A DNA stretch of 64,000 bases from an uncultured Clostridia bacterium. GTDB lineage: Bacteria > Bacillota > DTU025 > MWDF01. The notes below the pieces were generated by a model that had not been told where the DNA came from, made no database searches, and saw nothing but the letters and a program-made list of their open reading frames with translations. The stretch is taken from the NCBI GenBank assembly GCA_964545975.1, contig CAZJHY010000001.1:24094-88093 (forward strand), read 5' to 3'. How positions within the stretch are numbered: position 1 is the first letter of the stretch; each line of letters begins with the position of its first letter. The position numbers were made by a program, and so were the translations under genes. Below, piece after piece: positions 11,066 to 41,462 of this stretch.

Positions 11066-11713
11066 CTACTTGTTCTGCCCGTAAGTCCTGCCGAGGGTGG
11101 AGACCAATGCCTTCACCTGTTCGTCAGTTAGTGAGGATGCCCTGCCTATTTGCGAGGCGTGTATATAGCACGAGCACATCTTCTCCAGAAGCTCGCACCT
11201 TTCAAGGGCCTTCTCAGGCGTGTCAGCGACGCAGACTGACCCGTGATTGGACATTATTGCTGCATTCTTGCTTCCTAGCGCCTTCGCGACGTTCTTTGCT
11301 AGGTCGTCGCTTCCAGACATAGCATAATCCGCTACCTCTACAGCGCCTCCGAAGCTGAAAGCGCATATATCAGTTATGACCGGAAGAGGCATCCTTGCTA
11401 CGCCAAGGGCTATCGCCATGGGTGAATGAACATGAACGACGGCTTTAACCTCAGGCCTGGCAATGTAGATCTCCCTGTGCAGCATGCTTTCTACCGAGGG
11501 CTTAAGCTTTGATGAGGAATACAGTGTCGCCAGATCCAGCTCTACTATCTGCTCAGGGGAAAGCGCCTCATAAGGTATGCCGCTGGGGGTTATCAGCATC
11601 CCGGTTCCTGATTCATTCCTGCAGCTGACATTCCCTCCGGTGCCTATAGTAAGCCCCATTTCCATCATCTTGATGCCGGTCTGGATAATTCTTCTGTTAA
11701 GCTGCTCGTTCAT
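11066..11713 (-). CDS. Class II aldolase/adducin-family protein (FucA/AraD/OtnC-like)
   Basis: 'GLTIGTGGNVSCR', 'HVHSPMAIALG', 'SNHGSVCVADT'. Transcribed divergently from the RLP operon. Confidence 0.8.
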   Translation of the reverse strand: MNEQLNRRIIQTGIKMMEMGLTIGTGGNVSCRNESGTGMLITPSGIPYEALSPEQIVELDLATLYSSSKLKPSVESMLHREIYIARPEVKAVVHVHSPMAIALGVARMPLPVITDICAFSFGGAVEVADYAMSGSDDLAKNVAKALGSKNAAIMSNHGSVCVADTPEKALERCELLEKMCSCYIHASQIGRASSLTDEQVKALVSTLGRTYGQNK

Positions 11714-12151: not shown

Positions 12152-13162
12152 GTGAAGAGAACATTGTTAATCGCGGTTGTACTAGTCATGGCACTAACCA
12201 TCGTAACCGGCACTTTCGCAGCGACTACGCCTCTGTTGGTATCGGGCGGCGGTCTTAAGACGACCACTACCGTCAAGGCCAACTCGAAGTATCTCATCGC
12301 TTGCATCGTTAAGAACTCCACCAATCCTTACATGATCAAGCAGCTTGACGGCTTCAAAGCCGCCGGCGCATTCATGGGCTTCGACGCCGTCGCACTGGCT
12401 CCCGCCAAGGCCGACAACATCGAAGAGCAGGTCAAGATAATCGAAGACCTCATCCAGAAGGGCGTCAAGGGCCTCGTCATCCATCCTTCCGACTCCAACG
12501 GCATAGTCCCGATAGTCGAGAAGGCCATGTCGCTCGGCATCCCCGTGGTCGTAATAGGTACCCCGGCGAATACCGACAAGATATTCTTCCGCACCGGCAT
12601 GGACTATACCGACTCTGGCCGCAAGATCACCGAAGCTGCCATCCAGAAGATGGGCGGCAAGGGCAACGTCATAATACTTGAGGGCCCGCCCCAGGCGATC
12701 AACGCCAAGGAAAGGCTCAACGGCATGCTCGAAACTATAGCCAAGTACCCCGGCGTAAAGGTGCTTGACTCCCAGACCGCAAACTTCAACAGGCTCAACG
12801 CCCTCCAGGTCATGGAGAACCTCCTTCAGAAGCACAAGGACGTGCAGGGAGTCTTCGCGGCCAACGACGAGATGGCCCTCGGCGCGATCCAGGCTCTTGA
12901 AGCCGCCGGCAGGAAGAACGTGGTAGTCTCCGGCGTCGACGGAAGCAAGGACGCCTCGCAGGCGGTCCTCGAAGGCAGGCTCACAGTGACCTCGAATGCA
13001 GACCCCTATTCCAGCTCCTGGTGCGCCGCAGCATACATCGTGAAGTACTTGAACGACGGCACCATGCCGCCCTCCAAGTTCATCCCGTATCCCGCTGAAG
13101 TCGCCATCATCGACAAGAGCAACGTTCAGAACTACATCAACAACGACGCGTGGTGGAAGTAG
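12152..13162 (+). CDS. Sugar ABC transporter substrate-binding protein (PBP type 1, RbsB-like)
   Basis: Signal peptide 'MKRTLLIAVVLVMALTIVTGTFA'; ribose-binding-protein-like core. Confidence 0.8.
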   Translation: MKRTLLIAVVLVMALTIVTGTFAATTPLLVSGGGLKTTTTVKANSKYLIACIVKNSTNPYMIKQLDGFKAAGAFMGFDAVALAPAKADNIEEQVKIIEDLIQKGVKGLVIHPSDSNGIVPIVEKAMSLGIPVVVIGTPANTDKIFFRTGMDYTDSGRKITEAAIQKMGGKGNVIILEGPPQAINAKERLNGMLETIAKYPGVKVLDSQTANFNRLNALQVMENLLQKHKDVQGVFAANDEMALGAIQALEAAGRKNVVVSGVDGSKDASQAVLEGRLTVTSNADPYSSSWCAAAYIVKYLNDGTMPPSKFIPYPAEVAIIDKSNVQNYINNDAWWK

Positions 13163-13180: not shown

Positions 13181-13210
13181 ATGGAGCCCTGTCGCAAGAC
13201 GGGGCTCCAT
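13181..13210 (+). promoter_or_regulatory. GC-rich intercistronic hairpin after the substrate-binding-protein gene
   Basis: ATGGAGCCC-12 nt-GGGCTCCAT, a perfect 9-bp stem. The ORF-track start ATG 13181 lies inside this stem. Confidence 0.45.
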
Positions 13211-13231
13211 GCACCCAAGGGGGCGTTATTT

Positions 13232-14752
13232 TTGGAGATAGTACCTATCCTCGAAGCGAGGAACATCAGCAAGGAGTTCCCGGGCGTAAAGGCGTTGGAT
13301 GAAGTATCCATACAGGTAAGGCCCGGCGAGGTCCATGTACTGATAGGAGAGAACGGGGCCGGAAAGAGCACGCTGTCCAAGATACTCATGGGAGTGTATA
13401 CCAGCGACAAGGGCGAGATCCTGTTCGATGGTAAGCCCGCCCACATTAGGAACCCTCATGACGCAAGGGCATTAGGCATATGCGGTGTCCATCAGGAGTT
13501 CATGCTTGTACCCTGGATGAACGTCGCACAGAACATCTTCATCAACAGAGAGCCCAGGATTTGGCCGGGGCTTCCCTTCATAGACCACAAGAAGATGCAC
13601 GAGGACAGCAGGAAGCTGCTTTCCTCCTTCAACGTGAACATCAACACCAAGCAGCCGGTGAAATACCTGGACACCGCGCTCCAGCAGATGGTGGAGATAG
13701 TAAAGGCGCTATCTACGAACCCCAAGGTCCTGATACTTGACGAACCGACTGCAGTCCTCACGGACAGGGAGGTCAACAGCCTCTTCGCCCATATAGAGGA
13801 GCTGAGAAGCCGAGGGGTTGCGATCATATACATATCGCACAGGCTTCCTGAGATCAGAAGGATAGGCGACAGGGTCACGGTCCTAAGAGACGGGAAGTAT
13901 GTAGCAACGGTTGACATCAAGGACACCCCCGACGAGGAGCTCATCAAGATGATGGTGGGCAGGAGCGTTTCGCAGCTTTATACCAGAAACCGCCAGGTTC
14001 CCGGGAAAGAGGCCCTGAGGCTTGAGAATTTCAGCGTGAAGGGCGGACCGCAGAATGTCGACCTGGTGCTGCACTACGGAGAGATCATTGGGCTTGCGGG
14101 CCTGATTGGTTCAGGGCGCACCGAGCTTGTCAGGGGCATCATGGGAATTGACCAGCAGACAGGCGGTTCCCTTTACATCGATGGCAACAAAGTCACGGTC
14201 GGAAGCCCTGACAAGGCGATAGGACTGGGGCTGGGGCTTCTGCCTGAGGACCGCAAGAGGTATGGCCTCGCCCTTAAGACGAACATCGCCTGGAATACCA
14301 TAATGGCGAGCCTCAAGCGGGAGTTCCCCAAGGGAGTAGTAAGGGAGCGCAAGGTGCGCGACATCGCCCAGGGCTATGTTAAGCAGCTGAAAATCGCCAC
14401 AGACTCGGTATCTAAGGTGGTGGGCTTCCTAAGCGGAGGCAACCAGCAGAAGGTTGTCGTCGCCAAGTGGATCAACACCAAGGCCAAGATCCTCATCTTC
14501 GACGAACCTACAAGGGGCATCGACGTGGGGGCCAAGGCAGAGGTGCACGCCCTCATGGACAAACTGGTGGCCGAAGGAAACGCGATCATAATGATTTCCT
14601 CCGACCTGCCGGAAGTCCTCGGGATGAGCGACCGCGTCTACACGATATTCCAGTGCCGTTCCATGGGGGACTGCTGCTTCCAGGAGGCGAACCAGCAGAG
14701 AATCGGCTCCCTTATGCTGGGAGTGGGGGTGAAGACAGATGCAAACCAGTAA
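13232..14752 (+). CDS. Sugar ABC transporter ATP-binding protein with duplicated ATPase domains (RbsA/MglA/XylG family)
   Basis: 'LEARNISKEFPGVKALDEVS', Walker A 'GENGAGKST'; second cassette 'LSGGNQQKVVVAKW'. TTG 13232 with a GGGGG RBS is preferred over ATG 13181, which sits in the hairpin. Confidence 0.8.
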   Translation: MEIVPILEARNISKEFPGVKALDEVSIQVRPGEVHVLIGENGAGKSTLSKILMGVYTSDKGEILFDGKPAHIRNPHDARALGICGVHQEFMLVPWMNVAQNIFINREPRIWPGLPFIDHKKMHEDSRKLLSSFNVNINTKQPVKYLDTALQQMVEIVKALSTNPKVLILDEPTAVLTDREVNSLFAHIEELRSRGVAIIYISHRLPEIRRIGDRVTVLRDGKYVATVDIKDTPDEELIKMMVGRSVSQLYTRNRQVPGKEALRLENFSVKGGPQNVDLVLHYGEIIGLAGLIGSGRTELVRGIMGIDQQTGGSLYIDGNKVTVGSPDKAIGLGLGLLPEDRKRYGLALKTNIAWNTIMASLKREFPKGVVRERKVRDIAQGYVKQLKIATDSVSKVVGFLSGGNQQKVVVAKWINTKAKILIFDEPTRGIDVGAKAEVHALMDKLVAEGNAIIMISSDLPEVLGMSDRVYTIFQCRSMGDCCFQEANQQRIGSLMLGVGVKTDANQ

Positions 14753-15704
14753 GCTCATGGGCTTTTTGAGGAAGGTCCCGCCGGCGACATACATCATACT
14801 GCTCATGATAGCCATATACGGCATCGCCGCGCCCGGCTTCTTCACCCTTGGAAACCTCGAGAACGTCGGAAACCAGGCGGCCCCCCTTCTCATCGTCGCC
14901 ATAGGTGTGACCATGGTCATCATGACGGAGGGTACAGACCTTTCGATCGGTTATGTGATGGGCATGGTCGGAGTCGTTGTATCGATTATGCTTAGGGCGA
15001 AAATCTGGATAGGCTGGGCGTTCCTTGCCGGCATCGCGGTAGGGGTGTTCTGCGGCTTCATAAACGGCGTCGCAGTCGCAAAGCTCAAGCTTCCTCCGTT
15101 CATTGCTACGCTTGGTACCGGAAACGTCATATTCGGAATAGGCCTCGTCATAACCGAAGGATACTCCATACAGGCACTTGATCCTGCGCTGCTTTTTCTG
15201 GCAAGCGGCAAGGTGTTCGGAATAAGCATGCCGATACTGATTGCCACGGTGGTCTTCGGGTTATGCTGGGTACTCATGAACTACACGCCGTTCGGGCGCA
15301 ACATAGTCTCTCTCGGAGGCAACTCCGAGGCGCTTAGAGGCGTTGGCCTTAACGTCGGGAAAGCCTCCATATCGGTATACATGATGTGTGGCTTCCTTGC
15401 GGCAATAGGAGGCCTCATAGTGGCGTCAAGGACAGGCTCAGGCTATTCGGCGGCTGCCATGGGATGGGAGTTCGACGCCATCGGAGCCAGTATAATCGGC
15501 GGTACATCCTTCGAGGAGGGCAATGGATCCATAAGCAGGACCGTAATTGGTGTCGCGCTCATATCGATACTCAGAAACGGCCTTAATGTCGTGGGCGTGC
15601 CGAACATGTACCAGTACGCGCTCATCGGCGCCATAGTGCTGACGGCCATAATCCTGGACGTTCGCTTCAGGCAGGCCGCGAAGGGAGGCGTCAAGAGAGT
15701 ATGA
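14739..15704 (+). CDS. Sugar ABC transporter permease (RbsC/branched monosaccharide family)
   Basis: Polytopic; 'GGTSFEEGNGSISRTVIG' conserved permease region. Confidence 0.8.
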   Translation: MQTSKLMGFLRKVPPATYIILLMIAIYGIAAPGFFTLGNLENVGNQAAPLLIVAIGVTMVIMTEGTDLSIGYVMGMVGVVVSIMLRAKIWIGWAFLAGIAVGVFCGFINGVAVAKLKLPPFIATLGTGNVIFGIGLVITEGYSIQALDPALLFLASGKVFGISMPILIATVVFGLCWVLMNYTPFGRNIVSLGGNSEALRGVGLNVGKASISVYMMCGFLAAIGGLIVASRTGSGYSAAAMGWEFDAIGASIIGGTSFEEGNGSISRTVIGVALISILRNGLNVVGVPNMYQYALIGAIVLTAIILDVRFRQAAKGGVKRV

Positions 15705-16696
15705 ACGAAGGTTCAAGGATGAAGGACACCCCCAAGGCGGTCGCAATCGTAAACGACAGGCTCAAGGCAAGGGAGGCCATAGCTCCCCTCTTCAGGCTCA
15801 CGTTCCTGATAGTCCTCATGATCGCACTTTCCATACTCAGCGAGGACTTCTTCACATGGAGCAACCTAATTAACGTTCTCAGGCAGTCGACTTTCCTGAT
15901 AGTAATCGGCCTCGGGCTCACAGGGGTGCTGCTTACCGGAGGCATCGACCTGTCCGTAGGCGGTGTGCTCGCATTCGTGGGCTGCGCGACTGGACAGATG
16001 ATGAGATCCGGCGTTCCGCTTTATCTTGCAGTGCCAATCGGTCTTCTAATCGGAGCGGGAGTCGGATGCTTCAACGGTTTCATGGTGGGGTACATCAAGC
16101 TTCCTCCGTTTGTGGCCACTTACGGTTCCAAGTGGATATCCGAGGGCATGGCGCTGCTTCTTATGCAGGGGCAGGTCATCTACGGCTTCCCGAGGGTGTA
16201 CCGCTGGATCGGCATCGGCTACATAGGACCCATACCAGTGCCCATCATAATTGCTGCCATCCTTGCGGTAATAATGAACTTCCTGTTCGTGAAGACCGTA
16301 TTCGGCAGGCAGGTATATGCACTGGGCGCCAACAAGGAAGCAGCATTCTACTCGGGCATCAAAGTCAAGAAGAACATCATGGTGGTATACACCCTTGCTG
16401 GCCTCATGGCGGGCATTGCCGGCCTTCTGATGCTTGCAAGGCTTGACGCCGCCGAGGTGAACATGGGAGAGGCCCTGCAGCTGCAGTCCCTCGCCGCGGT
16501 CATCATCGGGGGTGCATCCCTTCGCGGAGGCGAGGGCAGCATATTCGGCACGATAATTGGCGCCATAACCCTTACGCTGGTCGTAAACGGGCTTAACCTG
16601 CTTGGCGTGCGCTCTTTGTGGCACTCAGTGGTGCTCGGCGGCGTCATCCTGGCATCCGTGATAATGGACCTGCGCATGAAGAAGCTGGCGCAATAA
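15701..16696 (+). CDS. Sugar ABC transporter permease, second subunit
   Basis: Paralogue of the previous permease ('GGASLRGGEGSIFGTIIG'); ATGA start/stop overlap. Confidence 0.8.
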   Translation: MNEGSRMKDTPKAVAIVNDRLKAREAIAPLFRLTFLIVLMIALSILSEDFFTWSNLINVLRQSTFLIVIGLGLTGVLLTGGIDLSVGGVLAFVGCATGQMMRSGVPLYLAVPIGLLIGAGVGCFNGFMVGYIKLPPFVATYGSKWISEGMALLLMQGQVIYGFPRVYRWIGIGYIGPIPVPIIIAAILAVIMNFLFVKTVFGRQVYALGANKEAAFYSGIKVKKNIMVVYTLAGLMAGIAGLLMLARLDAAEVNMGEALQLQSLAAVIIGGASLRGGEGSIFGTIIGAITLTLVVNGLNLLGVRSLWHSVVLGGVILASVIMDLRMKKLAQ

Positions 16697-17619: not shown

Positions 17620-18843
17620 ATGAAGACTATCGCAGTGATAACCTCGCTGGACACGAAGGGGAAAGAGACCCTCTATATAAAGGATGCGATCGAGAGGTTC
17701 GGCTCGAAGGCTCTCATCATAGACGTAGGGGTCAAGGAGCCGCCATATTTCACGCCTGATATCGCAAGGCACGAGGTGGCCGCCGCCGCCGGCATCGACT
17801 GGGATACGGTGAAGGACAAGGAGAAAAGGGTGAGGATAAGCACCATGACCTCAGGCCTTGAGGTGCTTATACCCAAGCTATATGCCGAGGGGAAGCTTTC
17901 GGCCGTGTTCTCGATGGGAGGCCTTCAGAACACAACGATGGGAACATCGGCGATGAAGACCCTGCCGCTCGGGGTGCCTAAGCTCATGCTTTCCACGATG
18001 GCGTCCAGCAACAGGCCTTTCGGTCCGTTCGTGGGAACCAAGGACATGACCCTCATGCACTCGGTGGGCGACATCCTAGGGGTAAACCCCGTCACCAAGG
18101 CCGTGATGGATAACGCCGTCGGAGCCATCGTGGGGATGGCGGAGCACGCCGGAAACAGGGTGCAGAAAACTGACAGGATCCTTGTGGGTGCCACTATGCT
18201 CGGCGTAACGAACGACGGAGTGAGCCGCGCGGTATCCTACCTCGAGGAGGCAGGCTACGACGTGGTCACCTTCCATGCGAACGGTGCGGGAGGACCGGCC
18301 ATGGAGGAGCTCATAGGACAGGACACGATAGACGCCGCGATGGATCTTACGCTGCATGAGATAGACGCTGAATTCTTCGGGGGGCACTGTTCGGGGGCGA
18401 CCAACAGGCTCCTTATGGCCGCCGAGAAGGGGATACCCCAGGTTGTTTCGCTTGGTGCCTCCGACGTCATAGACTATGAGGTCGTGGACCTCGACAAGGT
18501 AAGGGAGTATGGAAGGCGCAAGTTCGTCTATCAGCACCCCACCATCCAGCACATAAAGCTCATAGAGGAAGAGGCGCACAAGGTCGGGACGGTAATCGGG
18601 GAGAGGCTCTCAAAGGCCAAGGGTCCCCTAACCCTCGTCATACCTAGGGGAGGCTTCCACCAGAGCAGCTACAAAGGCGGTCCCATATGGGATCCTGCCA
18701 TCGACGAGATAATCATAGGACACATACTAAGCAGGATTGCGCCTTCCACAAGGGTGGTAGAGACCGCAGCCCATATCAACGAGCCCGCCTTCAGCAGGGT
18801 GGCGGCCGATGAGATGATTAAGCTTCTGAAGGCCATGCGCTAA
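17620..18843 (+). CDS. UPF0261 (Tm-1-like N-terminal domain) family protein of unknown function
   Basis: 'MKTIAVITSLDTKGKE', 'GGLQNTTMGTSAMKTLPLGVPKLMLSTMASSN', 'MTLMHSVGDILGVN', matching the UPF0261 pattern from memory. Confidence 0.65.
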   Translation: MKTIAVITSLDTKGKETLYIKDAIERFGSKALIIDVGVKEPPYFTPDIARHEVAAAAGIDWDTVKDKEKRVRISTMTSGLEVLIPKLYAEGKLSAVFSMGGLQNTTMGTSAMKTLPLGVPKLMLSTMASSNRPFGPFVGTKDMTLMHSVGDILGVNPVTKAVMDNAVGAIVGMAEHAGNRVQKTDRILVGATMLGVTNDGVSRAVSYLEEAGYDVVTFHANGAGGPAMEELIGQDTIDAAMDLTLHEIDAEFFGGHCSGATNRLLMAAEKGIPQVVSLGASDVIDYEVVDLDKVREYGRRKFVYQHPTIQHIKLIEEEAHKVGTVIGERLSKAKGPLTLVIPRGGFHQSSYKGGPIWDPAIDEIIIGHILSRIAPSTRVVETAAHINEPAFSRVAADEMIKLLKAMR

Positions 18844-18875: not shown

Positions 18876-20132
18876 ATGTTCTACGGACTGCCTTTCGACA
18901 ACCCCGAGTCCATTTATGGCAGGGATTACGTTCTGGGCACCTATTTCGTGACCGGCGTCACAGGAGACGATGCGCTTAATAAGCTGGGCATGTTTGCAGT
19001 CGGCCAGTCCACCGGCACGTGGATGCCGGTGCCCGGCATAACCAGGCAGATGGTGGAGGATCATCAGGGAAGAGTCGTCGGATGCTATCCGGTGCCCGCC
19101 CAGGAGCCCGGCGCCTACGTTCTTAGGGTGGCGTTTCCCTACAGCAACATAGGCGGGTCCATCTCGATGCTGCTTACCACGCTTGCGGGAAACGACGCTT
19201 CGACTGCGCTGTGCGCGAAGCTCATAGACGTGGAGCTTGTCGGCAAGGCGAAGTCGGCCTTCCACGGTCCGCACTTCGGAATAGACGGGGTGAGGAAGCT
19301 CACGGGAGTCTACGACAGGCCCATAGTCATGAATATGATCAAGCCTTGCACGGGCTTTCCGGCTACGGCAGGGGCGGAGTTCTTCTACGCGTCCGGATCA
19401 GGCGGCGTAGACATAATAAAAGATGACGAGCTTATGGGCAACACCAGCTTCAATTCCGTCGCCGACAGGGTGAGGGAGTATGGTAAGGCTCAAGCGAGAA
19501 TCGGAGGAGAGAGGGGCAAGGCCCCTATATACCTTCCCAATGTGACCGACAGGCACGATAAAATGCGCGACAACATCAAGGCGGCGATAGACGGCGGAGC
19601 GAAGGGCGTCATGGTCAACTTCGTCTTCACCGGACTCGACAGCCTTGCCGCGCTTACATCGGAGTTCGGCGACAAGGTGATGTTCCTCGCTCATGCGGCA
19701 GGAGTTGGCGTCATGACCGGTTATCCGCAGGGCTTAAGCACCTCGCTTCTTCTAGGAAGGCTCGGAAGGCTGGCAGGCGCGGACGCGGTGGTCACCCTTT
19801 ATCCTCTCGGCATGGGAGGAGACGGCTTCCAGGAGCTTCAGATGACGGTGCAGAAGCACAGGCTGCCTCTGGGAGATGTCAAGCAAGCCTTGACCGTGGT
19901 CGGAGGAGGCGTCACGCCGCTTACCGTACCGTTTGCGGTGAAGAGCTTCGGCAAGGACATAATCATCGCCGTTGGCGGTGGCATCCAGGGCCACCCGGAC
20001 GGGGCGACGGCAGGCGCAAAGGCCATGATGGCTGCGGTGGATGCGACCATGAAGGGCGTAAGCCTGGAAGACGCGGTTAAGGACAGCCCGGAGCTCGGAA
20101 GGGCGATAACCAGATGGGGCAAGAAGGCTTAA
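18876..20132 (+). CDS. RuBisCO large-subunit-like protein (form IV RLP)
   Basis: 'GQSTGTWMPV' (RuBisCO STGTWTTVWT-like), 'MIKPCTGF' (KPK region, K175 equivalent kept, K177 changed to Cys), 'GGVDIIKDDE' (carbamyl-Lys/KDDE motif), 'AVGGGIQGHPDG' (loop-6/GGG region). 418 aa, no small subunit. AAGGAGG RBS. Confidence 0.8.
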   Translation: MFYGLPFDNPESIYGRDYVLGTYFVTGVTGDDALNKLGMFAVGQSTGTWMPVPGITRQMVEDHQGRVVGCYPVPAQEPGAYVLRVAFPYSNIGGSISMLLTTLAGNDASTALCAKLIDVELVGKAKSAFHGPHFGIDGVRKLTGVYDRPIVMNMIKPCTGFPATAGAEFFYASGSGGVDIIKDDELMGNTSFNSVADRVREYGKAQARIGGERGKAPIYLPNVTDRHDKMRDNIKAAIDGGAKGVMVNFVFTGLDSLAALTSEFGDKVMFLAHAAGVGVMTGYPQGLSTSLLLGRLGRLAGADAVVTLYPLGMGGDGFQELQMTVQKHRLPLGDVKQALTVVGGGVTPLTVPFAVKSFGKDIIIAVGGGIQGHPDGATAGAKAMMAAVDATMKGVSLEDAVKDSPELGRAITRWGKKA

Positions 20133-20169
20133 GGGCCGCCCGAATGATGACCGTATGGAGGTAAAGCAG

Positions 20170-20793
20170 ATGGAAGATCTTATCATGAGCATAAAAAGGG
20201 ACGTGGAGCTCGCCTGCAGGAGGGCGTACACGAGGGGAATACAGACCGGAAGCGGCGGAAACGTCAGCGCAAGGATACCGGGCACGGACCATATGATAGT
20301 GAAGCCAAGCAAGGTGTCGCTCATCGAATGCGACCCCGAGACGCTTATCATAACCGACTTCGACGGAAACTTGGTGCAGGGCTCTCTTCCTCCTACGAGG
20401 GAGGCGGTGCTTCACGGCTGGCTGTATAAGAAGTTCGGCAAGATCGGAGCGGTGGTTCACACCCATTCGCCCTGGGCTATATCCTGGTCCTTCACCAGGA
20501 GGGACCTTCCCAATATTACCATGCATACTCAGCTTAAGCTGGGATGCCCCATCCCGGTCAGGTTCTTCTCCAGCCCCAAGGGGGTTCTGAAGGAGGAGAT
20601 GCCAGAAGTCTACGGCCTTTTCGAGAAGGAACCGAACCTCGCCGCCTTCATACTCGGTGCGCACGGTGTGGTCGCAGTCGGCGACAATATCATAGAGGCC
20701 GAGCACACGGCGGAGCTCATAGAGGAGACGGCACAGATAGCATACCTGCACGAGATGGGATTGAAGCTCGGGATGTTCCCCGAGGGCAGATAA
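20170..20793 (+). CDS. Class II aldolase/adducin-family protein
   Basis: 'GIQTGSGGNVSARIPG', 'AVVHTHSPWAISWS'. ATG 20170 with GGAGG RBS preferred over 20155. Confidence 0.8.
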   Translation: MEDLIMSIKRDVELACRRAYTRGIQTGSGGNVSARIPGTDHMIVKPSKVSLIECDPETLIITDFDGNLVQGSLPPTREAVLHGWLYKKFGKIGAVVHTHSPWAISWSFTRRDLPNITMHTQLKLGCPIPVRFFSSPKGVLKEEMPEVYGLFEKEPNLAAFILGAHGVVAVGDNIIEAEHTAELIEETAQIAYLHEMGLKLGMFPEGR

Positions 20794-20822: not shown

Positions 20823-21284
20823 ATGTACAGGAAGATGGTAATAGGCTGCGACGAGGCGGCCTGTGAGCTGAAAAACGCCCTTATCGAGGTCCTTAAGAAG
20901 AAGGGAATTGAGTATGAGGACGTCGGAGTGCCGGATGCAAGCGACAAGACCTATTATCCCCTGGTGGCAGAGAAGGTGGCCGAGGCGATAATAGAAAGCG
21001 GCTATGAGAAGCACGGGATGCTCCTCTGCGGAACGGGCATCGGCATGGCCATATCCGCGAACAAGCACCCCGGGGTATTTGCCGCTGTATGCCACGACCA
21101 GTATTCTACCGAGAGGGCGAAGCTGAGCAACAACTGCAACGTCATCTGCATGGGGGCAAGGGTCATAGGGCCAGAGCTTGCCAAGAAGAACCTGGAGCAA
21201 TGGCTTGAGCTGACGTTCAAGGACGGCTCCTCGACCCCTAAGGTGGAGGCTGTGAAGGATATCGAGAAGAGGCATATGAAATGA
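20823..21284 (+). CDS. RpiB/LacAB-family sugar-phosphate isomerase
   Basis: 'MKIGCDEAA', 'LLCGTGIGMAISANKHPGVFAA', 'NCNVICMGARVIG'. The upstream part of track ORF 20544 is an artefactual N-terminal extension. Confidence 0.8.
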   Translation: MYRKMVIGCDEAACELKNALIEVLKKKGIEYEDVGVPDASDKTYYPLVAEKVAEAIIESGYEKHGMLLCGTGIGMAISANKHPGVFAAVCHDQYSTERAKLSNNCNVICMGARVIGPELAKKNLEQWLELTFKDGSSTPKVEAVKDIEKRHMK

Positions 21285-22075
21285 GGAGCCCGCTTCTTGT
21301 CGGCACGAACCTCAAGATGTACAAGGGCGTGAAGGAGACGCTGGAGTTCCTTTCGCGCCTTGCGGGAAACGTCAGCCACATAGGCAGCGAAGACATGACG
21401 CTCTTCGTCATACCCTCCTACCTTGCCCTTCATGCGGCATGCGGGTCTGATGCGCACAGCAGGATACTCCTTGGCGCGCAGAATCTGCACTGGGAGGACT
21501 CCGGGCAGTTCACCGGTGAGATATCCCCCATGATGCTCAAGGAGATAGGCATAGATATCGCTGAGATCGGCCACTCGGAACGAAGGCAGCTTTTCGGTGA
21601 GACGGACGTGACAGTGGGGCTTAAGGCCAAGGCAGCGCTCAGGCACGGCATGAGGGCCCTGGTATGCATAGGGGAGACCGCAGACGACAAGGCGTCGGGC
21701 ATTACCTATGAGAAGCTGAGGATGCAGGTGAAGGTGGCCTTAAAGGGGATTTCTGCGGATGAGCTCGAGGGGCTTTGGGTAGCATACGAGCCGGTATGGG
21801 CCATCGGGATCCACGGGGTCCCGGCTGAGCCCGGATACGCCGAGAAGAGCCACAGGATGATAAAAGACGTGCTGGAAGAGCTTTACCCTAATAAGGGCGC
21901 AGGCGTTCCCGTGCTGTACGGCGGAAGCGTCAACATGGAAAACGCCATGGAGCTCATCGTCCAGCCGAGCATAGACGGCTTGTTCATAGGAAGGACCGCT
22001 TGGGACGCGGACAGGTTCGCGTCGCTGATCAAGGATGTCCTCCCCTTGTGGAAGGCCAAGGCTGAGAGAGAATAG
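21281..22075 (+). CDS. Triose-phosphate-isomerase (TIM) family protein, divergent paralogue, possibly a tetrulose-phosphate isomerase
   Basis: 'LVGTNLKMYKG', 'AQNLHWEDSGQFTGEISPMMLKEIG', 'IGHSERRQ', 'YEPVWAIG', 'YGGSV'. ATGA overlap with the upstream gene. Confidence 0.7.
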   Translation: MRSPLLVGTNLKMYKGVKETLEFLSRLAGNVSHIGSEDMTLFVIPSYLALHAACGSDAHSRILLGAQNLHWEDSGQFTGEISPMMLKEIGIDIAEIGHSERRQLFGETDVTVGLKAKAALRHGMRALVCIGETADDKASGITYEKLRMQVKVALKGISADELEGLWVAYEPVWAIGIHGVPAEPGYAEKSHRMIKDVLEELYPNKGAGVPVLYGGSVNMENAMELIVQPSIDGLFIGRTAWDADRFASLIKDVLPLWKAKAERE

Positions 22076-22104: not shown

Positions 22105-22776
22105 ATGGCGGACATGGTCATGGAGGCGAAAAGGCAGTTAATAGAGATCGGAAGGCAGATAGCTGCCAAGGGACTTGTGATAGGACCCGGCGGAAATACC
22201 AGCTTAAGGGCAGGCGCCCTCATGGTGATATCCGCCAGCGGCTCTTCATTCGAGTGCTCCGACGAGAGCGACTACGTCGCGATAGACATAGAGACAGGAA
22301 AACAGGCCGACGGCGGCAAGAGGCCGTCTTCCGAAGTGCTGATGCACCTTGAGTGCTACAGGAGGCGCCCGGATGTAAACGCTGTAGTCCATACCCATCC
22401 GACGTGGTCGACATCTGTAGCAAGCTCGGGCACCAAGATGCCCCCGATGTTCCCGGATTACGTCGTGTTCGTGGGCAAGCCCGCGACCCTGGATTACGTG
22501 ATACCGACGACGAAGCTTCTGGCCGATGCCGTGGCCGAAGTCATAGGGGAGCATAATGTGGTGCTCATGAGCAATCACGGGGTGCTTGCCGTCGCAGGCG
22601 ACCTCAAGATGGCGCTATTAAGGGTGGAGCTGGCAGAGGAGAACGCAAGGATGCTCGTGATAGCAAACTCCCTCGGCAAGCCGCGATCCCTTACGGATGC
22701 CGAAGTCCAGGCGATATTTGACCTGGAGAGCGAGAAGTACAGGCAGAGGCTTCTGAAAAACGAGGGCGGGAAGTAG
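22105..22776 (+). CDS. Class II aldolase/adducin-family protein
   Basis: 'GLVIGPGGNTSLRAG', 'AVVHTHPTWSTS', 'SNHGVLAVAGD'. Confidence 0.8.
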   Translation: MADMVMEAKRQLIEIGRQIAAKGLVIGPGGNTSLRAGALMVISASGSSFECSDESDYVAIDIETGKQADGGKRPSSEVLMHLECYRRRPDVNAVVHTHPTWSTSVASSGTKMPPMFPDYVVFVGKPATLDYVIPTTKLLADAVAEVIGEHNVVLMSNHGVLAVAGDLKMALLRVELAEENARMLVIANSLGKPRSLTDAEVQAIFDLESEKYRQRLLKNEGGK

Positions 22777-22798: not shown

Positions 22799-24271
22799 TT
22801 GTCCGACAGGCTTTTCATGGGGATAGACGTGGGCACGGGCGGAGCCAGGGTCATAGTCTGCGACGAGTACGGGTTGCCCCTGGCGGAAAGCTCGAGGCCG
22901 TTTGCCGCAGGTGCCGGCGCATCTGACATGCCCCAGGGCTGGCATCAGCAGTCGCCCGCAGCCTGGTGGGACGCGACTTCCGCATGTATAAGGCAGGTCA
23001 TGGGCTCACCCGGACTCGGCGGAAATCCTGGCAGGGTGTTCTCTGTTTCCGTCACATCCACATCAGGTACTGTGATCCCGCTTAGGGAGGATTGCGAACC
23101 GCTCTGGGATGCGGTCATGTACAACGACAGCAGGTCGTCCGCGCAGGCGGAAAGGGCGAACGAGGCGCTTAAGGAATTATGCGGGAAGCTCGCCTACAGG
23201 TTCGACACATCCTTCGGGCTTCCGAAGATGCTATGGTTCATGGACAGCAAGCCTGAGCTGTTCAGAAGGACCAGATTCTTCGTCCACGCTGGCGATTATA
23301 TTATCGGGAAGCTCTGCGGCTGCTTCGGTTTCACCGACTATTCCAACTCGCTGAAGTCTGGATACGACATCGATGAGCTGATATGGCCGAAGGAGATAGA
23401 GGAGAAACTGGGCGTCCCGGCGTCCAAACTGCCGGAAGTGCTCGCCCCGGGCACGGTAGTCGGGAAGGTCTGCGCCGCCTGCTCCGCAGAGACGGGCCTT
23501 CCGGAAAGCACCAACGTCGCGCTGGGCATGACGGACGGCTGCGCCTCGCAGATTGCATCGGGTGCCGCGTCCTTAGGCGACTGGAACACCACGATCGGCA
23601 CAACGCTTGTAATCAAGGGGGTCACCGAGAGGCTCCTCTTCGACCCGAAGGGAAGGATATACAGCCACAGGCATCCCGACGGGCACTGGATGCCAGGCGG
23701 GGCCAGCAACGTCGGCGGCGACTGCATAAGAAGCAACTTCCGCGACGATGAGCTGGATACGCTGAACGCGTCCGTGCGCCCTGAGAAGCCGACAGGCATG
23801 CTGGTGTACCCTCTGGAGAAGAAGGGCGAGAGGTTCCCGAACAGAGATCCTTTGGCAGAGGGGTTCATAATGGGAAGCCCATCAGGAAGGCCCGAGCTCT
23901 ATCAGGCCTACCTTGAGGGTGTTGCGCTGGTGGAGAAGATGTCATACGAGATGCTTCAGAGCTTGGGGGCGGCAATCGGTGACACGATCTTTGCGGCGGG
24001 AGGCGCCACGAAAAGCGAGCCATGGCTCAAGGTAAGGTCGAATATGCTCGACCGGCGCATTGCAGTCCCGGAGATTGCAGGAGGATTCATGGGAGCCGCC
24101 ATACTAGCAGCTTCCCTCTCCCATTGGGGCTCGCTCGGTGAGGCTGCCAAAAACATGGTAAAAATTTCCAAGACGATATGCCCGGACCCTGCCGCTGTCG
24201 ATGCCTATAAGGATAAGTACGGGCAGTTCATAAGAGAGATGGGAAGCAGGGGATATACCCTGGAGGGATGA
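22799..24271 (+). CDS. FGGY-family carbohydrate kinase
   Basis: 'FMGIDVGTGGARVIV' N-terminal actin-like motif; about 490 aa; TTG start with AAGGAGG RBS. Confidence 0.8.
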   Translation: MSDRLFMGIDVGTGGARVIVCDEYGLPLAESSRPFAAGAGASDMPQGWHQQSPAAWWDATSACIRQVMGSPGLGGNPGRVFSVSVTSTSGTVIPLREDCEPLWDAVMYNDSRSSAQAERANEALKELCGKLAYRFDTSFGLPKMLWFMDSKPELFRRTRFFVHAGDYIIGKLCGCFGFTDYSNSLKSGYDIDELIWPKEIEEKLGVPASKLPEVLAPGTVVGKVCAACSAETGLPESTNVALGMTDGCASQIASGAASLGDWNTTIGTTLVIKGVTERLLFDPKGRIYSHRHPDGHWMPGGASNVGGDCIRSNFRDDELDTLNASVRPEKPTGMLVYPLEKKGERFPNRDPLAEGFIMGSPSGRPELYQAYLEGVALVEKMSYEMLQSLGAAIGDTIFAAGGATKSEPWLKVRSNMLDRRIAVPEIAGGFMGAAILAASLSHWGSLGEAAKNMVKISKTICPDPAAVDAYKDKYGQFIREMGSRGYTLEG

Positions 24272-34758: not shown

Positions 34759-35010
34759 AAATATTCACAGCTAAGCGAAGGAATCCGCCCAAGAGCCATA
34801 CAAGCAAATAAGAGTCACAATACTGCCTGAGGCCTTTCCTTAGCTCGAACAAGGACGGAACGGGCATACTACGCTCCGTATATGGCGATTTCACTGCTAC
34901 TGCAACTATCATTGCTAAGTAGACCTGGAAACAGCGGCAACCGGAGAGGCGACCAATCAGTAAGCCATGGCTTACCGGAACCGCCGGAGCCAACTGCCCC
35001 AATTTGAAAA

Positions 35011-35019
35011 TGGTATAAT
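35011..35019 (+). promoter_or_regulatory. Extended -10 promoter element TGgTATAAT
   Basis: Seen in sequence about 85 bp upstream of ATG 35102. The leader contains a CGGGCGC/GCGCCCG stem. Confidence 0.4.
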
Positions 35020-35101
35020 CCTCAGTAATGATGCGACCTGGCGGGATGCCGGGTCGTTCGGGCGCCGAGGGCAGAAAAGCTTCGCGCCCGGGAGGGATAC
35101 C

Positions 35102-35758
35102 ATGGCAGCGGACCCAAGGCAGGAGATAGTTTCGACAGGGCAGTACCTTCTTTCCCATCAGCTCGCATGGGGAAGCACCGGCAACATCAGCGCGCGCTTC
35201 GACGACAGCTCATTTTTCATAAGCGCATCAGGTGCGAGCCTCGGGACCCTTACGACCGAGAGCCTCTCTTTGTGCAAGGTCAACGGCGAGATGGTCACCC
35301 ACAACGTAACCCCGTCGAAAGAGCATAGGGTGCACGCCGCAGTCTATATAAACGATCCGAAGGCGCGGGCCGTGATACACACTTCGCCTCCTTATGTGTC
35401 GCTGATAGCGGCAGCCAGGAATTTCGGGGATTTCACCGTGGAGCATTTCATCGAAGCGGCTGTCATGCTGCAGAAGGTAGCATGGATAACGTTCATGCTG
35501 CCCGGAAGCGCTGAGATAATTGAGGCTGTTGGTAAAGCAGCAAAGGAATCCGATGTGCTCATGATGCAGAACCACGGCATCATGGTGACAGGCGAGAGCA
35601 TGAGGAAGGCGCTCAACAAGGTGGACACTATGGAGTTCCTTTGCCGCATGGTTATAACCGCCAGGTCCGCCGGGATAGACCTCAGGGCGCTTTCTAGGGA
35701 AGAGCTGGAGATGCTTCTAAGCGATTCGCGAGCAAGGAACCTAAACTACGGCTCCTGA
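35102..35758 (+). CDS. Class II aldolase/adducin-family protein (fourth paralogue)
   Basis: 'AWGSTGNISARF', 'AVIHTSPPYVS', 'QNHGIMVTGES'. ATG 35102 with GGGAGGGA RBS. The track ORF start at 34967 has no RBS. Confidence 0.75.
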   Translation: MAADPRQEIVSTGQYLLSHQLAWGSTGNISARFDDSSFFISASGASLGTLTTESLSLCKVNGEMVTHNVTPSKEHRVHAAVYINDPKARAVIHTSPPYVSLIAAARNFGDFTVEHFIEAAVMLQKVAWITFMLPGSAEIIEAVGKAAKESDVLMMQNHGIMVTGESMRKALNKVDTMEFLCRMVITARSAGIDLRALSREELEMLLSDSRARNLNYGS

Positions 35759-39311: not shown

Positions 39312-39590
39312 AAGATCGCACAAGATTTTCCCTTGGTAGGACCAAGGCGGGAAGCTTTCTGCGATCAAGCAGTCAAATGATTGTTGTAATCGCCAGCGCG
39401 CGGCCTTCAGGCTATTTAAGTGCAGATATATGAAGTTGACTGAAATGAGTCTGGAATAATTGTTTGCTGATATGAGTATGTGAAATAAATATTTATGTTT
39501 GAGAAGCGCGAAATATGGTGTAGGATTTAGTTGGTTGTCATACCATCATACAAAGCAAGCCTAAATGCTAATGAAGGTTATGGTGGAACG

Positions 39591-40286
39591 ATGAGGATAC
39601 AGCCAATAGAACGTAGTACCCTGCCGGATGCCATTATCGAGCGGATTAAAGGAATGATCATCGACGGGAATCTCAAACCCGGCGACAAGCTCCCTCCCGA
39701 AAGGGATCTGGCTGCCAGCATGCAAGTAGGGAGAGCCACTGTAAGGGAGGCTCTAAAGGCGTTATCTTCAATCGGTCTCCTGCAAAGAAGCACCGAAGGG
39801 ACATATATAAAAGAGAAGATCGAGTACTTCCAGCAACCTCTTACATACAGCCTAATAATGGACCACATAACGCTCAAGGAGCTAATCGAGGCTAGAAGGA
39901 TACTTGAAGTCAAGATTTCTGAATTGGCAGCATTAAGGGCTACTGACGAAGAAATCGCTGGCATAGAAGATGCTGTTATGATACAGAAGATGCACCCGAG
40001 AGATACAGATTACCTCTTCTATGAGGCCGACTTGAAGTTTCATCTGACATTAGCAGCTGCTGCAAAGAATAGGGTTCTCAGCGAGACCATTGTCTGTACA
40101 AGGCATTTGTTGTTTAAGGCGCAGCAGGCAGTGGGTAAACTCCCGGGAATGACAGATAAAGCCCTAGTTAGTCATTCAGCCCTCTTGGAAGCAATCAAGA
40201 GCAAAGATGCCGAGAAGGCCAGAAGCGTAATGGAAGATCATATAGATGACGTGGAAGAAGGCTTCAGGAAGCTCAACTTGATTTAG
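39591..40286 (+). CDS. GntR-family regulator (FadR/FCD C-terminal domain)
   Basis: 'LPPERDLAASMQVGRATVREALKAL'. ATG 39591. Confidence 0.8.
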   Translation: MRIQPIERSTLPDAIIERIKGMIIDGNLKPGDKLPPERDLAASMQVGRATVREALKALSSIGLLQRSTEGTYIKEKIEYFQQPLTYSLIMDHITLKELIEARRILEVKISELAALRATDEEIAGIEDAVMIQKMHPRDTDYLFYEADLKFHLTLAAAAKNRVLSETIVCTRHLLFKAQQAVGKLPGMTDKALVSHSALLEAIKSKDAEKARSVMEDHIDDVEEGFRKLNLI

Positions 40287-40482
40287 TTGGCGATTGGCCT
40301 TCTTTTCTATTTGGGTTCATCATTGGTAGGACAATGCGACCATTGGCAATCGCTACAAAAAAGCCATGACTGATGCTGAAGCATAATGAAAATGCTAAGA
40401 CTATTGCGAGTAGCGAGATACCATTAATAGCAATAGATAGGGGCAAGAACCGAACATTCCATCTTGTTAGGAGGAATATCAG

Positions 40483-41451
40483 ATGAGTGGGATCAAGAAA
40501 GTGCTCGTTACAGACTACGTATTCCCCAACTTAGATCCGGAGAAGGCGATCATTGGAGCTGCTGGCGGAGAAGTCATATTCGCCGGAAAAGACGCCGATG
40601 ATGCCAAGATCTTGGAGCTTGCCAAGGACGCGGATGCAATCCTCAACTGCTACAAGAAGATACCTGCCGAGCTTTACTCAACTGCAAGTAAGTGCAAGCT
40701 CATCGTAAGATACGGCATCGGCACAGACACCATAGACATCCCAGAGGCCACGAAGCACCATATTGCGGTGAGCAATATGCCCGACTATTGCATAGACGAG
40801 GTTTCAGACCACGCTTTGACACTCATACTAAGCAGCATAAGGAAGATCACCACTGCCAACAAGCTTATCAAGAGCGGAACTTGGAGCCTCGGTCCTTTGA
40901 AGCCGATAAGAAGACTTAAGACCCTCACGCTTGGTTTGCACGGCTTCGGCCGCATCCCGAGGATGGTAGCTGAGAAGGCGAAGTCATTCGGGTTTAAGAT
41001 CATCGCCTGCGATCCGTACATTAGCAAGGAGTTGGCCGATAAGATGGGAGTCCAGACGGTAAGCTTCGATGAGCTTTGCGCAATGTCGGACGTCATATCG
41101 ATACATGCCCCCCTTACGAAGGAGACCAGCGAGATATTCAACGGAGAAGCTTTTGCAAAGATGAAAGACGGTGTAGTGATAGTTAACACAGCAAGAGGCG
41201 GGCTTATAAAAGAAGCCGACCTGGTTGAGGCACTTAAGTCTGGCAAAGTCGGGGCTGCTGGCTTAGACGTAACCAATCCCGAGCCACCGGCAAAGAACAA
41301 TCCGCTATTCGACTTCGATAATGTGACCTTCACACCGCATGAGGCATGGTATAGCGAGGAAGCGTTGGTAGAGCTACAGAACAAGGCAGCTGGCGAAATT
41401 GCCCGCTCACTTAAGGGAGAACCTCTCAAGTACCAACTCAATAAGCTCTAG
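40483..41451 (+). CDS. D-isomer-specific 2-hydroxyacid dehydrogenase family (NAD-binding)
   Basis: 'GLHGFGRIPRMVAEKAKSFGFKI', 'VNTARGGLI', 'GLDVTNPEPP', 'TPHEAW'. Confidence 0.8.
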   Translation: MSGIKKVLVTDYVFPNLDPEKAIIGAAGGEVIFAGKDADDAKILELAKDADAILNCYKKIPAELYSTASKCKLIVRYGIGTDTIDIPEATKHHIAVSNMPDYCIDEVSDHALTLILSSIRKITTANKLIKSGTWSLGPLKPIRRLKTLTLGLHGFGRIPRMVAEKAKSFGFKIIACDPYISKELADKMGVQTVSFDELCAMSDVISIHAPLTKETSEIFNGEAFAKMKDGVVIVNTARGGLIKEADLVEALKSGKVGAAGLDVTNPEPPAKNNPLFDFDNVTFTPHEAWYSEEALVELQNKAAGEIARSLKGEPLKYQLNKL

Positions 41452-41462
41452 GAAGGGTGCAG

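Follow-up and report, generated by a model that had tools for sequence, protein, structure and literature searches.

A form IV RuBisCO-like protein in a Clostridia sugar operon and its possible role in erythrulose phosphate metabolism

What does a relative of RuBisCO do in an operon devoted to the uptake and breakdown of sugars? The question is raised by a gene for a RuBisCO-like protein (RLP) in a 64,000-nucleotide stretch of DNA from an uncultured Clostridia bacterium (contig CAZJHY010000001.1 of assembly GCA_964545975.1), referred to here as the window. A sequence-only reading of this gene had proposed enolase, isomerase or decarboxylase chemistry on a phosphorylated keto compound in place of CO2 fixation, a view that both the losses in the active site and the sugar-catabolic neighbourhood support. 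The RLP belongs to a distinct, widespread and previously uncharacterised form IV group, with a conserved set of neighbouring genes. By analogy with known tetrose pathways, the reaction that we tentatively favour is the epimerisation of erythrulose 1-phosphate (Eu1P) by enolisation, which would make the RLP an analogue of EryC acting upstream of a triose-phosphate isomerase (TIM) paralogue and an RpiB-family isomerase. The gene in question is:

18876..20132, + strand: RLP, form IV RuBisCO-like protein, ATG start, 418 amino acids (aa)

The RuBisCO-like protein, its active site and its clade

A ribosome-binding site, AAGGAGG, lies 7 nt 5′ of the start codon, and the gene is placed inside an operon because the gaps to the preceding (32 nt) and following (22 nt) genes are both short. 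Homology of the product to the RuBisCO large subunit is beyond doubt and far above chance. Pfam RuBisCO_large (PF00016) matches with E = 2.5e-39, the RuBisCO_large_N match being weak, and the best PDB chain is 4NAS, an RLP from Alicyclobacillus (2e-60), followed by MtnW structures at ~1e-55. An AlphaFold2 model built on 84 homologues has a pLDDT of 93 and aligns structurally (TM ~0.88) with form III RuBisCO, the RLP of C. tepidum and MtnW, none of which is more than 32% identical to it. All four motifs quoted in the sequence-only reading are found in the translation of 18876-20132, namely GQSTGTWMPV (aa 43–52), MIKPCTGF (aa 154–161), GGVDIIKDDE (aa 176–185) and AVGGGIQGHPDG (aa 365–376). The last of these had been labelled as the loop-6/GGG region and is actually the G403/G404 loop of the first phosphate site (P1).

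Active-site positions were scored in an alignment of the RLP with spinach RbcL, MtnW, 4NAS and 117 full-length homologues. The spinach reference agreed with canonical numbering at 21 positions, and the MtnW and 4NAS sequences were reconstructed from PDB search alignments. In spinach numbering, 13 of the 22 scored positions are kept: T65, W66, N123, K175, D198, K201, D203, E204, H294, G380, G381, G403 and G404. The remaining nine are changed (E60G, T173M, K177C, R295A, H298V, H327V, K334M, L335G and S379G), which rules out a complete carboxylase site and upholds the earlier form IV call. Key residues of the RLP are K182 (carbamate), D184 and E185 (Mg), K156 (=K175), C158 (=K177) and H273 (=H294), while N106, at the N123 position, and D107 lie in an N-domain loop. 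Loop 6 is without its Lys (K334), the local sequence being PLGMGGDG.

Judged from these residues, the Mg/carbamate site and the P1 phosphate loops are intact, and the carbamyl-Lys/KDDE region was correctly described as conserved, with the equivalents of K201, D203 and E204 all kept. The CO2-handling residues (E60 and K334) and those of the second phosphate site (P2; R295, H298 and H327) are gone. Together, these retentions and losses give a form IV RLP pattern that fits a monophosphate substrate and simple enolisation. The sequence-only reading had drawn attention to the substitution at K177. A Cys is indeed present there in 117/117 close homologues, but it is not distinctive, since other RLPs commonly have it, among them 4NAS and members of the sister clade and of further RLP clades; in MtnW the position is Met or Val. 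The informative features are the loss of E60, K334, R295, H298 and H327, the retained Asn at 123, by which MtnW is excluded, and an Asp107 specific to the clade.

In a neighbour-joining tree of representatives at 50% identity, the RLP falls in a clade of its own, apart from the YkrW/MtnW clade. The trees carry no support values, and placement relative to the named clades (IV-Photo, IV-NonPhoto and IV-DeepYkr) was approximated from active-site signatures and PDB ranks. The signature of the clade is G60 T W N M K C K D E H ... G379 G G G, or GND-ST ... MxKPC at the sequence level; an unlabelled clade next to it in the tree still has E60 and K334. Clade-specific residues are Asp107, Ser109, Thr110, Asn153, Tyr202, Gly343 and Gln371. 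Of these, Asp107 directly follows the N123 equivalent, at a site that is hydrophobic or gapped in all other RLP clades.

Homologues of the RLP share 43–97% identity with it and come mostly from metagenome-assembled genomes; the window itself has a match of ~96% identity in a contig (L007) from an uncultured Clostridia bacterium. A scan of species representatives found relatives in at least 316 species-level genomes from the Bacillota, Acidobacteriota, Chloroflexota, Actinomycetota and Spirochaetota, with carrier lineages from gut, rumen, digester, peat and soil. Carriers in the Bacillota include Christensenellaceae, Oscillospiraceae, Erysipelotrichaceae, Lactonifactor longoviformis, Clostridium magnum and Petroclostridium. 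Cultured carriers are L. longoviformis DSM 17459, C. magnum DSM 2767, Petroclostridium sp. X23 and Pseudonocardia charpentierae DSM 45834. Three loci from Leptolinea/Chloroflexia (L053, L057 and L066) have a second RLP paralogue, ~37% identical to the query, on the opposite strand ~6.4 kb upstream.

Many members of the clade have been automatically named ‘2,3-diketo-5-methylthiopentyl-1-phosphate enolase’ by JGI, and others have only generic names; one is a ‘transcriptional regulator’ in NCBI. The enolase and regulator names are probably propagated misannotations, since the catalytic Lys is missing and the gene context conflicts with them.

Conserved partners and the case for a tetrulose phosphate

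The sequence-only reading passed over the UPF0261, TIM-paralogue and RpiB genes, which carry most of the functional information. Their conservation was assessed in 83 non-duplicate loci of the clade, searched by tblastn with proteins of the window and of variant loci; several of the loci without partners are truncated contigs. NCBIfam equivalog scores are given, in bits, with each model's curated cut-off (score/cut-off). The genes that surround the RLP in the window are as follows.

12152..13162, +: ATP-binding cassette (ABC) periplasmic sugar-binding protein of CUT2 type, RbsB-like (NCBIfam RbsB 153 bits, under cut-off)
13181..14752, +: ABC ATPase with two ABC domains by its translation, start codon uncertain; in 42/83 loci
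14739-15704 and 15701-16696, +: two BPD_transp_2-type permeases, whose homologues in L001 and L002 have PF02653
16728..17537, +: metallo-beta-lactamase-fold (MBL) hydrolase, lactonase-like, HWDH motif; in 41/83 loci, usually right after the permeases
17620..18843, +: UPF0261 (Tm-1-like ATP-binding) protein, putative kinase (Pfam UPF0261 4e-54, UPF0261_C 2e-61)
20155..20793, +: class II aldolase/adducin-family protein, AldA (Pfam Aldolase_II 9e-37)
20823..21284, +: RpiB/LacAB-family sugar-phosphate isomerase, DerI/EryI-like (NCBIfam RpiB subfamily 162 bits, passes); start codon checked
21281..22075, +: TIM paralogue, LerI/EryH type (NF000722 295.8 bits, cut-off 293)
22105..22776, +: second class II aldolase-family protein, AldB, accessory (FucA-like model 130 bits, under cut-off)
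22799..24271, +: FGGY-family carbohydrate kinase, accessory (XylB model 194/380); same position in L001 and L010
24276..25673, +: phosphohexomutase-family protein (PGM/PMM/GlmM-like), accessory (Arch_GlmM 354/439); same position in L001 and L010
25686..26372, -: Crp/Fnr-family regulator, converging on the operon end

Every gene within ~7 kb either side of the RLP was assigned to sugar transport or metabolism, and the larger open reading frames (ORFs) in the rest of the window, read by eye, are unrelated. No dehydrogenase is present among the operon genes of the window. Homologues of the sugar-binding protein (47–88% identity) head the cassette in 38 of the 83 loci, and the ABC ATPase homologues of L001 and L002 have PF00005 twice. 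For the MBL, the best PDB matches are AiiA-type N-acyl-homoserine lactonases (1e-17) and 4-pyridoxolactonase, with NCBIfam lactonase models under their cut-offs. AldA falls under all equivalog cut-offs (epimerase subfamily 117/251, OtnC 85/250, MtnB 71/137; best PDB match 6BTD) and, on this evidence, may be an aldolase, a decarboxylase or an epimerase. AldB, the FGGY kinase and the phosphohexomutase-like protein are accessory, AldB homologues being found only in the closest relatives of the window (L001 and L010).

The commonest neighbour of the clade is UPF0261, found in 56 of the 83 loci and in most of them as the gene just before the RLP. The TIM paralogue and RpiB are each found in 54 loci, and both together in 49; AldA-type class II aldolases occur in 46, nearly always alongside UPF0261. 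The ABC-MBL-UPF0261-RLP-RpiB-TIM-aldolase cassette is found repeatedly in four phyla, Bacillota, Acidobacteriota, Chloroflexota and Spirochaetota. A GntR/FCD regulator, with homologues in ~36 loci, is usual for the ABC-MBL-UPF0261-RLP cassette and stands in most related loci in place of the Crp/Fnr-family regulator of the window.

Variant loci keep the RLP, TIM and RpiB, and it is the front end that differs. For example, GH38, a Zn-dependent alcohol dehydrogenase (Zn-ADH), UPF0261 and a cupin are present in Christensenellaceae, and an FGGY kinase with a 2-hydroxyacid dehydrogenase in Lactonifactor. C. magnum has Amidohydro_2, a phosphoenolpyruvate (PEP)-hydrolase-like protein, UPF0261, an MBL and a transketolase, the last in line with a tetrose-phosphate pathway. 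In Erysipelotrichaceae, the front end consists of an SgaT-family (SgaT/UlaA) phosphotransferase system (PTS), a class II aldolase and a HAD phosphatase, and in Actinomycetota of a SorC regulator, DUF2291/ABC, a Dak kinase, an FGGY kinase and a GlpD-like dehydrogenase. Across the 83 loci, FGGY kinases were found in 19, GlpD-like dehydrogenases in nine, and Dak kinases and SgaT-family PTS in six each; the 2-hydroxyacid dehydrogenase and Zn-ADH are further variable front-end genes. A constant back end of TIM and RpiB behind a varying front end indicates a common intermediate. When contexts were mapped onto the RLP tree, the window-type cassette was found in both major subgroups, interleaved with other context types. 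Since these include erythritol-type contexts, one conserved RLP reaction is the simplest reading.

Other features of these loci are of note in their own right. In C. magnum (L070) and in L058, L034 and L083, the UPF0261 gene forms a pair with one for a PEP-hydrolase-like protein (PF09370). A tungsten-type aldehyde:ferredoxin oxidoreductase (AFOR_N/AFOR_C) is encoded in L090 (6666-8597) and in or beside about eight RLP cassettes, the others being those of L002, L014, L015, L018, L019, L024 and L049; this hints that in some anaerobes the pathway yields an aldehyde, which might be formaldehyde or glycolaldehyde released by the class II aldolase. Genes resembling URO-D follow the RLP in L090 and occur in several other loci.

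The nature of the common intermediate is suggested by the TIM and RpiB partners. The TIM of the window is 49% identical to that of a Rhizobium oiaX cluster, which scores 420 bits against the same model (NF000722). In a search of 72,556 plasmid records, the window TIM best matched TIM paralogues in apiose or tetrose clusters. A loop-8 motif, GR(S/T)AW, is common to the TIM paralogues of the window, L087, L088 and L089; E. coli TpiA has GGASL there. A housekeeping TpiA was ruled out for the window gene on the basis of its paralogue-type best matches and this motif. The TIM paralogues of tetrose and apiose clusters also have an extra residue after WAIG, and the two features together could serve as a sequence marker for LerI/EryH-type isomerases. 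Against a D-erythrulose-4-phosphate isomerase model with a cut-off of 240 bits, the window RpiB scores 154, below it, and the Rhizobium RpiB passes with 254.

LerI/EryH, a TIM paralogue, converts L-erythrulose 1-phosphate to D-erythrulose 4-phosphate, which DerI/EryI, an RpiB paralogue, converts to D-erythrose 4-phosphate (PMC10733421, PMC11508834). Since its TIM and RpiB partners are of this tetrulose-phosphate type, the RLP most likely makes or handles Eu1P, by analogy with these systems, and the operons appear to end at erythrose 4-phosphate.

Two clusters outside the clade share these partners. The Rhizobium cluster has oiaX, a four-carbon-acid-sugar kinase, TIM, RpiB, PGDH_C, an ABC transporter and a Gfo/Idh/MocA oxidoreductase, and a Pasteurella cluster has a Dak kinase, a PF01261 protein, a SorC regulator, RpiB, a TRAP transporter, a cyclase, TIM, transaldolase and transketolase. 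The record with the latter (Pasteurella multocida NZ_CP113523.1; L089) is labelled a plasmid but has rpoD, dnaG, tal and tkt beside the Dak/PF01261/RpiB/TRAP/cyclase/TIM-IIB-fusion cluster, and probably represents a piece of a chromosome. The gene set resembles an EryC-type version of the window operon, in which TRAP and a cyclase-family hydrolase replace the ABC transporter and MBL.

As to UPF0261, the only catalytic activity reported for the family is that of MarK, an ATP-dependent kinase described in 2025 (PMC12624787). MarK is described as an aromatic kinase, and the context of the RLP loci points to a sugar or acid-sugar kinase role for UPF0261. By analogy, the UPF0261 protein is the putative supplier of the phosphorylated substrate of the RLP.

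Candidate reactions

The data establish the fold of the RLP, its residue pattern, the clade to which it belongs, the conserved synteny and the exclusion of MtnW, Oia and carboxylase identities. The scheme that we infer, in its substrate, reaction, order of steps and imported compound alike, would begin with uptake of an acid sugar or lactone by the ABC transporter. Compounds considered as possible substrates are L-ascorbate, dehydroascorbate or 2,3-diketogulonate, D-erythroascorbate, 3-oxo-isoapionate, aceric acid, 3-oxo-tetronate and AI-2-like diketones. Three enzymes would supply the RLP: the lactonase-like MBL, UPF0261 as kinase and, as decarboxylase or aldolase, the class II aldolase-fold protein. 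The RLP, Mg2+-dependent and with a carbamylated Lys, would hold a ketose monophosphate, most likely Eu1P, through its retained P1 phosphate loops. It would remove the proton alpha to the Mg-bound carbonyl to give a 2,3-enediolate, as RuBisCO does at C3 of ribulose 1,5-bisphosphate, and reprotonation on the opposite face would interconvert D-Eu1P and L-Eu1P. Protons might be donated by K156, by the invariant C158 or by D107, which is specific to the clade. The LerI/EryH-type TIM would then take L-Eu1P to D-erythrulose 4-phosphate and the DerI/EryI-type RpiB would yield D-erythrose 4-phosphate.

This is the reaction of EryC, D-erythrulose-1-phosphate 3-epimerase (alias tetrulose-4-phosphate racemase), which is needed where class II aldolases such as FucA and RhaD give D-Eu1P (PMC10733421). 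The erythritol set of Brucella comprises EryD, EryA, EryB, EryH and EryI (PMC11508834). Actinobacterial loci of the L087 type (L087 and its relatives L050, L068 and L080) match this set with SorC, DUF2291, ABC, FGGY, GlpD-like dehydrogenase, TIM and RpiB genes, and have the RLP where EryC would be. EryC itself has the fold of a xylose-isomerase-like TIM barrel (PF01261), and the L087-type loci showed no PF01261 gene of the EryC type. A single Pasteurella PF01261 protein, from the Dak/RpiB/TIM cluster, was used as a stand-in for EryC and matched only one of the 83 loci; plasmid searches with this stand-in and the L087 GlpD-like protein reached no annotated ery loci.

An epimerase is favoured over a decarboxylase because these erythritol-type loci hold the RLP without a PF01261 gene. 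It is also favoured because front ends with a PTS, or with a kinase and a dehydrogenase, supply a ketose phosphate and not a beta-keto acid, because R295 and the loop-6 Lys, both kept in Oia-type decarboxylases, are missing from the clade, and because the co-conserved class II aldolase-fold protein offers an alternative decarboxylase (with OtnC as precedent) or an aldolase. Finally, C3 epimerisation of the enediolate, which forms xylulose 1,5-bisphosphate, is a known side reaction of RuBisCO, and this too speaks for an epimerase, as does the match of the AldA-RLP-RpiB-TIM block of the window to the synthetic FucA-EryC-LerI-DerI module (PMC10733421).

Several observations weigh against EryC-like epimerisation. 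The lactonase-like MBL, the GntR/FCD regulators and the lack of a dehydrogenase suggest a cassette built for an acid or lactone, and with such a substrate decarboxylation must occur somewhere in the pathway. The tight adjacency of kinase and RLP mirrors that of OiaK and OiaC/X, an analogy in which the RLP would be the decarboxylase. In addition, TIM and RpiB are absent both from L090-type loci, which have the aldolase, UPF0261, the RLP and the aldehyde:ferredoxin oxidoreductase, and from four Chloroflexota loci (L006, L046, L059 and L064) with the order MBL, UPF0261, URO-D-like, DeoC, UPF0261, URO-D-like, RLP. The case is further weakened by the ambiguous role of the class II aldolase, the neighbour-joining method of the trees and the single stand-in sequence from which the absence of EryC is judged.

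A different enolisation reaction, on another phosphorylated ketose or keto acid, is a somewhat unlikely alternative. The RLP could, for instance, catalyse a 1,3-proton transfer as the R. rubrum RLP does, isomerise a 2-oxo/3-oxo-acid phosphate, or act as a pentulose- or hexulose-1-phosphate 3-epimerase feeding the class II aldolase; possible sources of the substrate are rare ketoses, branched acidic sugars, and ascorbate or dehydroascorbate. The residue pattern needs only a monophosphate and a Mg-bound carbonyl, the L090-type gene set of kinase, RLP, aldolase and aldehyde:ferredoxin oxidoreductase suggests cleavage to dihydroxyacetone phosphate (DHAP) and an aldehyde, Erysipelotrichaceae loci use an SgaT/UlaA-family PTS, and the window carries additional FGGY kinase, mutase and second aldolase genes. 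However, such a reaction leaves the LerI-type TIM and DerI-like RpiB unexplained as constant partners, and no particular alternative substrate is favoured by the evidence.

OiaC and OiaX are RLPs of the oxidative D-apiose pathway, for which the NCBI annotation of Rhizobium oiaX loci served as a reference and in which the RLP decarboxylates 3-oxo-isoapionate 4-phosphate and so leads to L-Eu1P. On the main rival model, that of an OiaC-like decarboxylase, UPF0261 would phosphorylate a beta-keto acid sugar released by the lactonase, and the RLP would decarboxylate the product through a Mg-stabilised enediolate to Eu1P. The Rhizobium oiaX clusters share the operon logic of RLP, kinase, TIM, RpiB and CUT2 ABC transporter, the kinase gene of the window lies immediately 5′ of the RLP, and an operon without a dehydrogenase needs a substrate that is already oxidised; the lactonase-like MBL and the GntR/FCD regulators of relatives also fit. 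Nevertheless, we consider a decarboxylase unlikely. The Rhizobium oiaX product shares only 28% identity with the RLP, has a different signature (DTFGIKAKDEHRWQKY) and keeps R295 and K334, both lost here; the RLP lies in another clade and scores 128/700 against the OiaX model (NF042437). Membership of the OiaC/OiaX family was ruled out on these grounds. Moreover, clade members also occur in loci of erythritol, PTS and dehydrogenase type, where neither an acid nor a lactone is processed, and, with OtnC as an analogue (85 bits against its model), the decarboxylation might instead fall to the class II aldolase-fold protein.

MtnW, the 2,3-diketo-5-methylthiopentyl-1-phosphate enolase of methionine salvage, is a very improbable identity. 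MtnW/YkrW-type proteins are the closest characterised and solved relatives (31–33% identity), the best NCBIfam matches are MtnW models, and the neighbouring aldolase weakly resembles MtnB. Yet both models score under their cut-offs (NF007095 266/409, TIGR03332 220/513.6), the trees set the RLP clade apart, and the surrounding genes form an ABC sugar operon in which mtnK, mtnA, mtnX and mtnD were not seen. The general-base Lys of MtnW (K98 in G. kaustophilus), at the N123 position, is present in 2OEK, 2ZVI, 4NAS and all YkrW-clade representatives, whereas the RLP has Asn106, with Asn in 116 of 117 homologues. The RLP is not MtnW, because Asn takes the place of the catalytic Lys and the scores are far under the cut-offs.

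A genuine form I, II or III carboxylase has next to no chance of being right: although the fold and the KDDE metal site are intact and the top Foldseek matches include form III enzymes, this possibility was ruled out by the incomplete active site (with E60G, K177C, R295A, H298V, H327V, K334M and S379G among the changes), by scores far under the cut-offs (form III 207/497, PRK04208 195/438, form II 100/489), and by surroundings in which no PRK, small-subunit, carboxysome, R15P isomerase or AMP phosphorylase gene was seen, either next to the RLP or in the larger ORFs elsewhere in the window (read by eye beyond 10–26 kb). The sequence-only reading had likewise seen no small-subunit, Calvin-cycle partner or carboxysome genes nearby.

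The RLP functions listed in a 2023 review are enolase, 1,3-isomerase, decarboxylase/transcarboxylase and oxygenase only (PMC10176493). It is conceivable, if short of probable, that by analogy with EryC the clade has a fifth kind of RLP chemistry, that of a ketose-1-phosphate 3-epimerase replacing EryC non-homologously across at least five phyla. In the open-access literature, no paper was found that pairs ‘RuBisCO-like’ with UPF0261 or Tm-1-like, that mentions PF06792 at all, or that links RLPs to erythritol or erythrulose catabolism, co-mentions being concerned with the methylerythritol phosphate pathway or unrelated topics. Each known RLP function has informed ideas on the evolution of RuBisCO chemistry. 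The RLP described here would be a new functional variant in a known superfamily; its clade is distinct, widespread and misannotated, and its operon is conserved. Defining its function would put the annotation of the clade right, reveal a catabolic route of anaerobes that ends at erythrose 4-phosphate, and give the UPF0261 family a role in carbohydrate metabolism. If EryC-like epimerisation is correct, a misprotonation side reaction of RuBisCO would have been turned into a main reaction, and the UPF0261 family, with a kinase for sugars or acid sugars, would gain no more than its second known activity. Alternative epimerase parts would also become available for engineered formaldehyde-assimilation and tetrose pathways, such as the erythrulose-monophosphate (EuMP) route to erythrose 4-phosphate. 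The hypothesis is directly testable, since cultured carriers exist.

Beyond the operon, the window holds four class II aldolase/adducin-family genes in all, at 11066-11713 (-), 20155-20793 (+), 22105-22776 (+) and 34967-35758 (+). Those scanned fall under NCBIfam equivalog cut-offs; the last was identified by eye from a GSTGNISAR-type motif. A putative second acid-catabolic cluster at 39531-43924 (+), also read by eye, comprises a GntR-type regulator, a D-2-hydroxyacid dehydrogenase, a LarA-like gene and an HMGL/isopropylmalate-synthase-like gene, followed by a Liv-type ABC transporter and an acetate/butyrate-kinase-like gene.

Comparison with known systems

Among RLPs, those of the MtnW/YkrW type (2OEK, 2ZVI and 4NAS) are like the RLP of the window in fold, in the carbamate-Lys/Asp/Glu site, K175, H294 and the P1 loops, and in the loss of P2 residues and the loop-6 Lys. 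They differ from it at the N123 position, where the RLP has Asn, and in its Asp107, the Gly at S379 and a Gln at position 407. The R. rubrum RLP (3QFW), a 5-methylthio-D-ribulose-1-phosphate 1,3-isomerase, likewise carries out an enolisation proton transfer on a ketose 1-phosphate with no carboxylation. Its context is S-adenosylmethionine/methylthioadenosine metabolism, which is absent at the window operon, and membership of its type (IV-DeepYkr) was rejected because 3QFW matches only at 9.4e-33 over residues 72-379, below many others.

The oxidative D-apiose pathway with its OiaC/OiaX RLPs was reportedly described by Carter and colleagues in 2018. In operon logic, the Rhizobium oiaX loci (L088 and L091) resemble the window: both have a CUT2 ABC transporter and a front end for lactones or acids, the RLP gene adjoins that of a kinase, and the TIM and RpiB are of LerI and DerI type. 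The kinase is DUF1537 in Rhizobium, whereas the kinase-like gene of the window is UPF0261; the window operon is also without the ApsD- and ApnO-type dehydrogenases of the Oia pathway but has a class II aldolase-fold gene. The shared TIM and RpiB support a similar pathway, not membership of the Oia family. Non-oxidative apiose routes were rejected as the pathway, as they would release formaldehyde.

The AldA-RLP-RpiB-TIM block of the window mirrors the synthetic EuMP module, FucA-EryC-LerI-DerI, with the RLP in the EryC slot (PMC10733421). The synthetic module takes DHAP and formaldehyde (or Eu1P) to erythrose 4-phosphate, whereas the operon of the window is natural and, being linked to a transporter, a lactonase and a kinase, is probably catabolic. 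EryC and the RLP would share a reaction and a slot in the pathway, upstream of EryH/LerI and EryI/DerI homologues. Their folds are unrelated, that of the RLP being the RuBisCO fold, and the RLP would thus be a non-homologous replacement for EryC.

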